A stretch of 64,000 nucleotides of DNA from Candidatus Obscuribacterales bacterium. GTDB taxonomy: Bacteria; Cyanobacteriota; Vampirovibrionia; Obscuribacterales; Obscuribacteraceae. Below the pieces are notes generated by a model that searched no databases, had not been told where the DNA came from, and saw nothing but the letters and a program-made list of their open reading frames with translations. The position numbers were made by a program, and so were the translations under genes. Below are positions 28,748 through 30,374 of the stretch, one piece after another (within the stretch, counting starts at the first letter, position 1; each line of letters opens with the position of its first letter). The DNA lies in the NCBI GenBank assembly GCA_965228855.1, contig CBDDIJ010000005.1, forward strand, positions 832,001-896,000, given 5' to 3'.

Positions 28748-28902
28748 TTTTGGCAACGAGGCGTTGCCGGATTTTCGGAAATGCGTCATAGCCAGATAGA
28801 CAAGCCGGGAAATTTAATAGGCGGCGAAGGGCACTGAGCCACGAAACCCTGATTCAGTGGGCCTTTGGGGAGAAGCTTGGCACGCCGGCATATAGTAGGA
28901 AG
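28748..28902. repeat. Intergenic repeat copy 1 (uninterrupted; empty IS110 target)
   Basis: Near-identical to 28913-28951 joined to 30217-30332; contains GGCAACG-AGG-CGTTGCC hairpin. Confidence 0.9.
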
Positions 28903-28965
28903 GTTCACTGGCTTTTGGCAACGAGGCGTTGCCGGATTTTCGGAAAAGCGTTGTACGTTAGAGAT

Positions 28966-29200
28966 TGACAGCAGACCCAATCAATTGACACCAGGTCCTG
29001 CTGTCGGCAAGGCTATCCGAGGACGCGAGGATAGAGAAACGGAAGAAACCAGGAAAAAGCGTATGACCGCGAAGTCAGGCTATGAGGTTTGGACTTCCGT
29101 TTCTGTCTTGTCCTCTGAGGCTGAACACTATCAGATGCAAATCCTAGAACGATTTAGCATGCGTACAAGGCTCGCCCTGACAAGATTCTATCCGCGTCCT
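28966..29200 (+). ncRNA. Predicted bridge RNA of the IS110 element
   Basis: 5' hairpin plus target-binding and donor-binding internal loops with guides matching the flanks and the circle junction (see findings). Confidence 0.85.
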
Positions 29201-29233
29201 GTGTAGGTTGGCAAGTCTAAATGGAGGCGCATC

Positions 29234-30199
29234 GTGATATCACTTGGGATAGACATCTCTAAAGAGACTGTGGATTGCTATCTGCTCTCGGAACGAGGGC
29301 GGAAGTTGCACGCTGACAACTCTGACAGCGGATTTCGGCGAATTGAGAAGTGGCTGAATCAGCACACCGAAAGCGAAGTACAAATTTGCATGGAGGCCAC
29401 TGGAAAGCTCTGGGAGCCACTCGCAGAATACTTCTGCGACAAAGGTTTTGCCGTCAGCGTCGTCAATCCTGTTCAGATCAAAAACTTTGGCAAAAGCCTG
29501 TTGAAGCGTTCAAAGACGGACGCAATTGATGCCGAGGTAATCGCACAGTTTTGCAAACTGATTCAACCGAAGACCTGGACGCCCCTCCCGGACGTGGTCC
29601 GGAAGATTCGCAACATTGAGCGTCACATTGATGCGCTCAAGACCGACCGAACCAGAACCGTGAATCGTACCGAGTCCGGTCGGCTCGACGAACCTGTGAG
29701 TATCTCGCTTCAGCGGCAAATCGAATTCATCAACAATGAGATTTTGCTGCTGGAACAGGCTCGAGACCTCTTGATCAAGTCCGAACCGCAATTTCAGAAC
29801 GATCTCGCCTTACTGCAAACCATCCCTGGAGTCGGTTTGATCTCGGCACTCACGTTTCTCACGGAAATTTCCGGCTTGGATTCCTTCGAGTCGTTGAGAG
29901 AAGTCGAGAGCTACTGCGGCTTGACTCCGGAATTGCGCGAGTCTGGAACTTCTGTTCGAGGGCGTCCGAAGATGTCTAAGAAAGGCTGCAAGCGCCTCCG
30001 GAAAGTTTTCTACATGGCGTCTCTGAGCGCAGTTCGATCAAACCCTGCCATTCAAAAATTCGCGACAAAGTTGGCAGAGAAGTGCAAACCAAGGAAAGTC
30101 ATCTTGTGCGCCGCCATGCGCAAGCTACTTCGCATCATGATGGCGATCTACAGGACAAAGACACCATTTAATCCCAATCATCTAAGCGTTCATTGTTGA
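29234..30199 (+). CDS. IS110 family recombinase/transposase
   Basis: DEDD RuvC-like motifs GIDISK, CMEATG, KTDAID; C-terminal IPGVG and GLTPELRESGTS (catalytic Ser); GGAGG RBS; uninterrupted 321 aa. Confidence 0.95.
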   Translation: MISLGIDISKETVDCYLLSERGRKLHADNSDSGFRRIEKWLNQHTESEVQICMEATGKLWEPLAEYFCDKGFAVSVVNPVQIKNFGKSLLKRSKTDAIDAEVIAQFCKLIQPKTWTPLPDVVRKIRNIERHIDALKTDRTRTVNRTESGRLDEPVSISLQRQIEFINNEILLLEQARDLLIKSEPQFQNDLALLQTIPGVGLISALTFLTEISGLDSFESLREVESYCGLTPELRESGTSVRGRPKMSKKGCKRLRKVFYMASLSAVRSNPAIQKFATKLAEKCKPRKVILCAAMRKLLRIMMAIYRTKTPFNPNHLSVHC

Positions 30200-30374
30200 C
30201 AGCGAACACACTACCTCATAGCCAGATAGACAAGTCGGGAAATTTAGCAGGCGCCGAAGTGTACTGAGCCACGAAACCCTGATTCAGTGGGACTTTTCGG
30301 AGAAGCTTGGCACGACGACATATAGTAGGAAGTCTGAGAGAAGAAAGCCGGCAGGCGGCTTTCCATCGCGCGAC

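Follow-up and report, generated by a model that had tools for sequence, protein, structure and literature searches.

The closest described system to the element reported here is IS621 (Durrant 2024, PMC11208160; Hiraizumi 2024, PMC11208158; PMC13626964; PDB 8wt6), in which a two-domain DEDD and serine recombinase is combined with a left-end bridge RNA that carries handshake bases as well as four guides. Its CT core has been described as invariant and always paired by the guides (PMC13626964), and the core itself is defined as the repeated sequence in PMC11208160. Conservation is lower at the first core base, and cores with GT, AT, or TT also work (PMC11208158). Engineered cores of these three kinds, reported for IS621 (PMC11208160, Extended Data Fig. 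8) and for IS622/ISCro4 (10.1101/2025.05.14.653916), vary at the first base and keep T at the second, as does the element described below. In PMC11208160, such tests changed the target, the donor, and all four guide positions jointly, or the target-loop guides with CT fixed, while the IS622/ISCro4 designs were filtered for identical cores under a matched-core rule (10.1101/2025.05.14.653916). The layout found here, in which only the target and the left target guide are switched, is absent from the engineered-core tests described in the accessible parts of these sources. ISPpu10 and ISPpu9 of Pseudomonas putida (10.64898/2026.03.19.712850; PMC12288879) are likewise IS110 elements aimed at palindromic repeats, in their case REP sequences, and ISPpu10 tolerates a G-G mismatch at the right donor guide (10.64898/2026.03.19.712850); unlike our element, both have an identical core at the two ends (CT, or AG on the other strand).

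The window, that is, the whole stretch of 64,000 nucleotides of Candidatus Obscuribacterales DNA that was analysed, carries an intact IS110 element of the IS621 type (Table 1), one of four copies in its genome (G000) that are 99.8-100% identical. Its recombinase matches PF01548 and PF02371, has the DEDD residues and the catalytic serine (D7, E54, D96, D99, and S237, all invariant columns in two alignments), and aligns with IS621 chain 8wt6_A at an E value of 4.6e-50. A protein scan returned a Candidatus Obscuribacterales protein 99% identical to it, and single-protein scans found one locus in genome contigs and none in metagenomes. The non-coding left end of 282 bases folds into two guide loops, the four guides match the target and donor arms, and empty alleles show scarless insertion into a repeated target, at one set position within it. 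Membership of the IS1111 group (seekRNA) was considered and rejected: 17 bases follow the stop codon, and the long end lies upstream of the gene. The donor arms are near-identical to those of IS621 (ACACTAT and TGTAC here, ACAGTAT and TGTAT there), and target G6-C7 against donor A6-T7, a palindromic repeat target, and a predicted junction promoter are also shared. A promoter scan of the linear sequence returned two minus-strand matches only, near chance. In the narrow sense of the IS621 paradigm, an identical donor and target core paired by all four guides, the element departs from its model: the target core is GT, the donor core is CT, and only the left target guide is of the G type.

Table 1. 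Window positions of the element, its target and donor arms, its predicted guides, and the neighboring repeat unit.
Feature	Position	Strand	Basis or remark
165-bp repeat unit with unoccupied palindromic target, GT core 28785-28786	28748..28912	+	upstream of element
Left target, positions 1-9, core GT 28950-28951	28943..28951	+	sequence and junction-spanning contigs
IS110-family element, IS621-type, intact	28952..30216	+	1265 bp; shared T assignable to either end
Right donor arm, start of left end	28952..28957	+	complementary to guide 29162-29167
Predicted -10 hexamer TACGTT, promoter formed only in circle	28954..28959	+	17 bases from TTGACA once ends meet; predicted
Predicted bridge-RNA region	28966..29200	+	fold and covariation in relatives
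Left target guide, G at position 8 (29061)	29054..29062	+	AAAAAGCGU; column positions shared with the guides of relatives
Right target guide 29078-29084, core guide AG 29085-29086 (C-type), handshake GU 29087-29088	29078..29088	+	aligned relatives
Left donor guide, C at position 8	29125..29133	+	29125-29132 = ACACUAUC
Right donor guide 29162-29167, core guide AG 29168-29169 (C-type), handshake GC 29170-29171	29162..29171	+	
Bridge recombinase, 321 aa, DEDD RuvC-like and Tnp domains	29234..30199	+	PF01548, PF02371 above cut-off
Predicted -35 hexamer TTGACA, circle-junction promoter	30196..30201	+	read from sequence; predicted
Left donor arm with donor core CT (30215-30216)	30208..30216	+	copy comparison
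Right target, positions 10-16	30217..30223	+	7/7 complementary to right target guide

The predicted bridge RNA was supported by a fold of 28995-29200 that was better than shuffles (z -2.68) and by a two-loop scaffold in 10 relatives with two-sided changes in 11 of 33 consensus pairs; the automatic consensus gave good resolution for the target loop and partial resolution for the donor loop. A comparison of the region with Rfam gave no match. The left target guide matches the target at eight of nine places, the core G among them, and across the four copies it fits the respective site at 6-8 of 9 places (6/9 at C5:1462675). The first-pass annotation had held that the donor guides fit the donor C, which their sequences bear out (29162-29170 of the right donor guide reads CGUACAAGG, and its GC handshake fits target G6-C7), and that the guide encodes the mismatch. 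The latter applies to the left target guide, which has G, but the other three core-reading positions are of the C type and follow the donor. The AG core bases of the right target guide fit CT and not GT, and AG core guides are invariant in 10/10 aligned relatives, whatever the target core. By pair counting, one guide position is mismatched at every stage. The left donor guide has A, not U, at position 9, and several relatives are also unmatched at position 9 of a left guide, a place that seems to be unpaired or loose. In the left target guide, T replaces A within positions 4-5 (window 29057-29058) in L002, in L003, and in sequencing runs X9, X12, and X16. The T at guide position 5 in copy C2:198470 and the TT at positions 4-5 in the sister genome G193 (same genus) each fit their own site, and such variants in near-identical copies represent guide drift caught at the strain level. 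In a contig of the element from run X8, the right target guide is changed twice (29080-29081), and the right flank is different.

The junctions themselves were read directly in the sequence, with GT on the left and CT on the right, so that donor and target have only the second core base in common, as the annotation had stated. The same pattern was found in all four copies in G000 and in the single copy in G193 (L003; L001 is the same insertion and was tallied once), that is, in 5/5 insertions, contrary to the scenario in which all other insertions have CT/CT cores. The empty site cited in the annotation does have a GT core, but it is the target of a paralogous repeat unit 165 bases upstream rather than the pre-insertion allele. 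For four of the five insertions, genuine empty alleles could be identified, every one GT: run X16 has one for the window's own site, G193 has those of copies C2:987644 and C5:1462675, and G000 site C3:2154394 is the empty counterpart of the insertion in G193, the occupied allele being longer by exactly 1265 bases. For the remaining insertion, C2:198470, no orthologous empty site was found in G193. At the window's locus, G193 has one repeat unit, empty and with GT; the 165-bp unit (window 28748-28951 and 30217-30332) is doubled in G000 and single in G193. We consider it of negligible likelihood that the junction was misassembled or read one base out of register. Register slips are easily made, and two relatives, L017 and L021, were once taken as CC when they are actually CT/CT; here, however, the donor arm anchors the register together with the invariant AG core guides, and five insertions in two genomes, together with contigs of other studies, agree. 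Contigs of runs X1 and X3, which may be the source sample of the window, span the left junction with unchanged letters, the right junction is spanned by X1 contigs without other letters, and GT is also the left-junction reading in X9 and X12, which belong to two further studies. Contigs of six runs (X1, X3, X8, X9, X12, and X16) contained no circle junction, and raw-read runs X21 and X22 gave no coverage of the stretch; since every right junction is CT, the circle is expected to carry CT. A joint of 28950 to 30216 in X1 was considered as an excision product and rejected, since it corresponds to the repeat unit upstream of the element.

The target is a palindromic repeat, for which a profile built from four rebuilt sites gave 436 matches on both strands, 432 of them ungapped; this palindrome family, with about 430 strand matches in the genome, had no match in Rfam. 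Position 8 of the ungapped matches is G in 430, A in 2, and C in none, which accounts for the G at the junction and makes the repeat a target family without CT at the place of the core. These counts also bear on the idea that the element inserted at rare CT variants of the repeat and that the left G was acquired later by mutation or by conversion within the repeat family. Conversion is conceivable given such abundance, yet the absence of C from all 432 matches, the GT in the empty alleles of four sites (by which the idea is largely refuted), the G carried by the guide itself, and the 99.8-100% identity of the copies, a sign of recent movement, render it very improbable.

A survey of homologous elements for core asymmetry, the check that the annotation had suggested, uncovered AT/CT and TT/CT relatives, and the asymmetric core is thus not unique. 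Of 267 loci screened, 145 had a scaffold anchor, and 116 distinct loci had a left-junction call; a score of 9 or more was reached by 54 loci (and by 2.7% of 1160 null trials), corresponding to 46 elements, from which five were dropped on inspection for register slips or lack of resolution (L036, L045, L076, L083, and L089). The caller left position 8 free and required C-type donor guides, which makes it blind to non-CT donors. Among the 41 remaining elements, the left junction was CT in 37, CC in one (L088), and had a non-C first base in three (the window element, L005, and L018), where it was copied by the left guide; 38/41 have C at this guide position, making the G of our element unusual. 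All three belong to the window's family, and no guide switch was seen in the 33 elements outside it, within the reach of a caller blind to non-CT donors. Hand reading added L004, L006, and L270 as AT/CT and L009 as TT/CT, which brings the AT elements to five; both junctions were read in four of these five and in L009, whose donor-loop handshake UU fits its own target. In the protein tree (rooted at the midpoint for drawing only), the GT element stands beside a CT sister (support 100/99), the five AT elements form one clade (98/94), and the TT element lies apart. This topology suggests separate origins of the one-guide switch for GT, AT, and TT, at least three in one family.

It could be argued that position 8 is read loosely, so that any NT core is accepted and the left-guide G, rather than licensing GT, is neutral or a small adjustment. 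One CT donor is found with CT, AT, and GT targets in pairs 2552-2558 of PMC11208160 Supplementary Data 2, the copy at C5:1462675 fits its own guide at only 6/9 places, and L209 has a TT left junction under a C-type guide, which runs against a strict guide rule. Against this, the guide has the target's base in all seven confident non-C elements other than L209 (GT 1, AT 5, TT 1), representing three origins, and core-guide mismatches were costly in IS621 screens (PMC11208160). We therefore regard loose reading as improbable.

Several relatives are informative in their own right. The sister element in G000 (52% protein identity; three copies, L028, L029, and L030, on C2) has the same donor arms, a CT/CT core, and C in the left target guide. 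Its insertions lie at the margin of repeats belonging to the palindromic family that the window element targets, roughly 30 bases away from the latter's site. It may serve as a natural matched-core control, and cross-mobilisation with the window element is possible. L318 and L320, on plasmids of Ca. Bandiella and Ca. Paracaedimonas, have symmetric CA cores with UG in both right core guides, which indicates that the second core base is changeable when donor, target, and guides change together. L088, a single locus, combines CC at its left junction and in its left target guide with CT on the right, which may represent a mismatch of core base 2. Glycine replaces the alanine equivalent to IS621 A61 in all five AT elements, while the GT and TT elements have alanine. 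In the alignment of 60 close homologues (A1, column of residue 55), glycine occupies this position in 36. The five glycine-bearing homologues with DNA context all target AT cores, and the others are predicted to do the same. The association of the alanine-to-glycine change with AT cores, seen in one clade and hence a single event, is a lead.

The junctions, empty alleles, guide sequences, repeat census, and recurrence were read from the DNA, and all of the chemistry that follows is borrowed from IS621. On this footing, the element probably inserts as a CT-core circle, using IS621 chemistry, at palindromic repeats whose core is GT, the left target guide being the one guide switched to G. The circle would rebuild the promoter and the bridge RNA would then be made, its left target guide pairing to the target's bottom strand across the GT core. 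The right target guide would keep its G, held by the protein as in the IS621 structure, at the cost of facing the top-strand G of the target as a G-G mismatch. In IS621, G80 and G165 are bonded to the A61 carbonyl (PMC11208158), which offers a reason for keeping the right-guide guanines; G8, not A8 or T8, was modelled as bonding to this carbonyl (PMC11208158), and the window recombinase keeps alanine at the equivalent position. The top strands would be cut after the shared T and exchanged, and the mismatch would pass from the target loop to the donor loop, with the handshake gaining Watson-Crick pairs as in IS621. IS621 cuts the top strand between 9 and 10 and the bottom strand between 9* and 10* (PMC11208158), the latter corresponding, by our renumbering from the pairing of 1 with 14* in that paper, to a cut between positions 5 and 6. 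Bottom-strand cuts four bases away would leave a heteroduplex at positions 6-9, in which core base 1 would be a third mismatch beside positions 6 and 7, repaired to the top strand. Heteroduplex mismatches have been proposed to undergo repair (PMC11208158), and an unligated bottom strand has been described (PMC13626964). The product would have the target's GT on the left and the donor's CT on the right, and inheritance of the top strand predicts this arrangement, as found in 5/5 insertions. The guide switch would thereby have opened an abundant repeat without CT at the place of the core. Two published observations count against this explanation: pairing to both core strands was strongly preferred by IS621 and non-CT cores were less efficient (PMC11208160), and CT versus GT cores ended the cross-reactions of two bridge RNAs (10.64898/2026.04.29.721476), in a design where every guide of the GT set had presumably been altered.

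The junction pattern is alike for double-strand recombination followed by repair and for a single-strand route (copy-out, half-match), in which only the top strands are joined, the other strand is replicated, and no core heteroduplex is repaired. Asymmetric donor rejoining and single-stranded donor-junction products have been reported for IS621 (10.64898/2026.08.31.748434, 2026 preprint), and the top-strand pattern in all five insertions is what such a route would leave. Structures of the insertion complex show bottom-strand cleavage (PMC11208158), which speaks for two-strand exchange, as would, though in one case, a private base near the right junction. Position 30214, which is donor position 7, is C in the window copy and T in the other three of the four copies, T being the base fitted by the left donor guide. 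The private C equals the target's position-7 base and lies within the predicted heteroduplex. One possible origin is a footprint of repair, with a top-strand T facing a bottom-strand G; this is a single post hoc case, for which plain mutation is also possible. Overall, the single-strand route appears unlikely, and insertion by IS621-type exchange of both strands is the reading that we retain.

The annotation had further suggested that the core mismatch bears on directionality, which was not supported: by pair counting and by an energy proxy, the mismatch cancels between the states before and after exchange. Before exchange, position 8 is a G-G mismatch in the target loop and a G:C pair in the donor loop, and the two are swapped afterwards. 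The handshake forms one Watson-Crick pair before exchange and three after, the same 1 to 3 count as in IS621 (PMC13626964). With RNA-RNA energies, a rough proxy, the state after exchange differed from that before by -2.2 kcal/mol for G and C targets alike, and both states were about 4 kcal/mol weaker with a G than with a C target under the same rough rules, which counts against our explanation. At the level of pairing and the energy proxy, the core mismatch thus does not bias direction. The target-loop handshake is GU in the window element, compared with AU in IS621 and in eight aligned relatives. Combined with a C target, we infer, a GU handshake would fully pair the target loop before exchange, a state that blocks IS621; the G-G mismatch may offset this full pairing.

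Part of the phenomenon can be recognized in published data. In Supplementary Data 2 of PMC11208160, which has 5,485 pairs without guide sequences, at least 9 of 205 index-matched pairs inspected by eye (2400-2604) differ at core base 1 (2440, 2502, 2515, 2547, 2552, 2555, 2558, 2568, and 2587), the pairing by index being our own interpretation of the file. The text of PMC11208160, in its accessible parts, passes over these discordant pairs without remark, and the motifs of the window element were not found in that data file. No statement of guide-encoded core asymmetry was found in the parts of the literature covered, which also included PMC13396178, PMC13604230, PMC11187229, 10.64898/2026.08.14.744561, and 10.64898/2026.10.21.760802, the Pelea ISCro4 paper and preprint supplements lying outside this scope; the accessible part of 10.1101/2025.10.25.684509 had no match for 'core'. 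A lone match for "core mismatch" was set aside, as it concerns bottom-strand mismatches beside the core rather than discordance between donor and target cores. The chemistry is already known and discordant pairs stand in published supplementary data; the guide layout and its repeated origin are new here. With known chemistry and an outcome permitted by published structures, the surprise is moderate.

The matching of cores, treated as a rule in bridge genome editing, is likely dispensable, and a single shared T would be all the DNA-DNA identity needed at the crossover. Designs for bridge editing are screened so that cores are identical, mostly CT, and pipelines that take the core as the repeated dinucleotide when calling boundaries will miscall elements such as this one. 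We tentatively propose that the first core base could be a free target position, where one base of the left guide directs a universal CT donor to GT, AT, or TT while the G's of the right guides are kept, a proposal about which we are somewhat more doubtful than confident. If true, this would be a better recipe for non-CT cores than altering all four guide bases, and CT and GT cores would not be orthogonal by chemistry. A natural element that joins CT to GT also cautions that cores treated as 'orthogonal' may cross-react with certain guide layouts. The guide-layout rule is cheap to test and of direct use in editing. A bearing of unmatched cores on programmable target range, as the annotation had suggested, is plausible, and a recently mobile natural element that takes a CT donor to GT targets through a single guide base suggests that one fixed donor could serve a broader set of targets.
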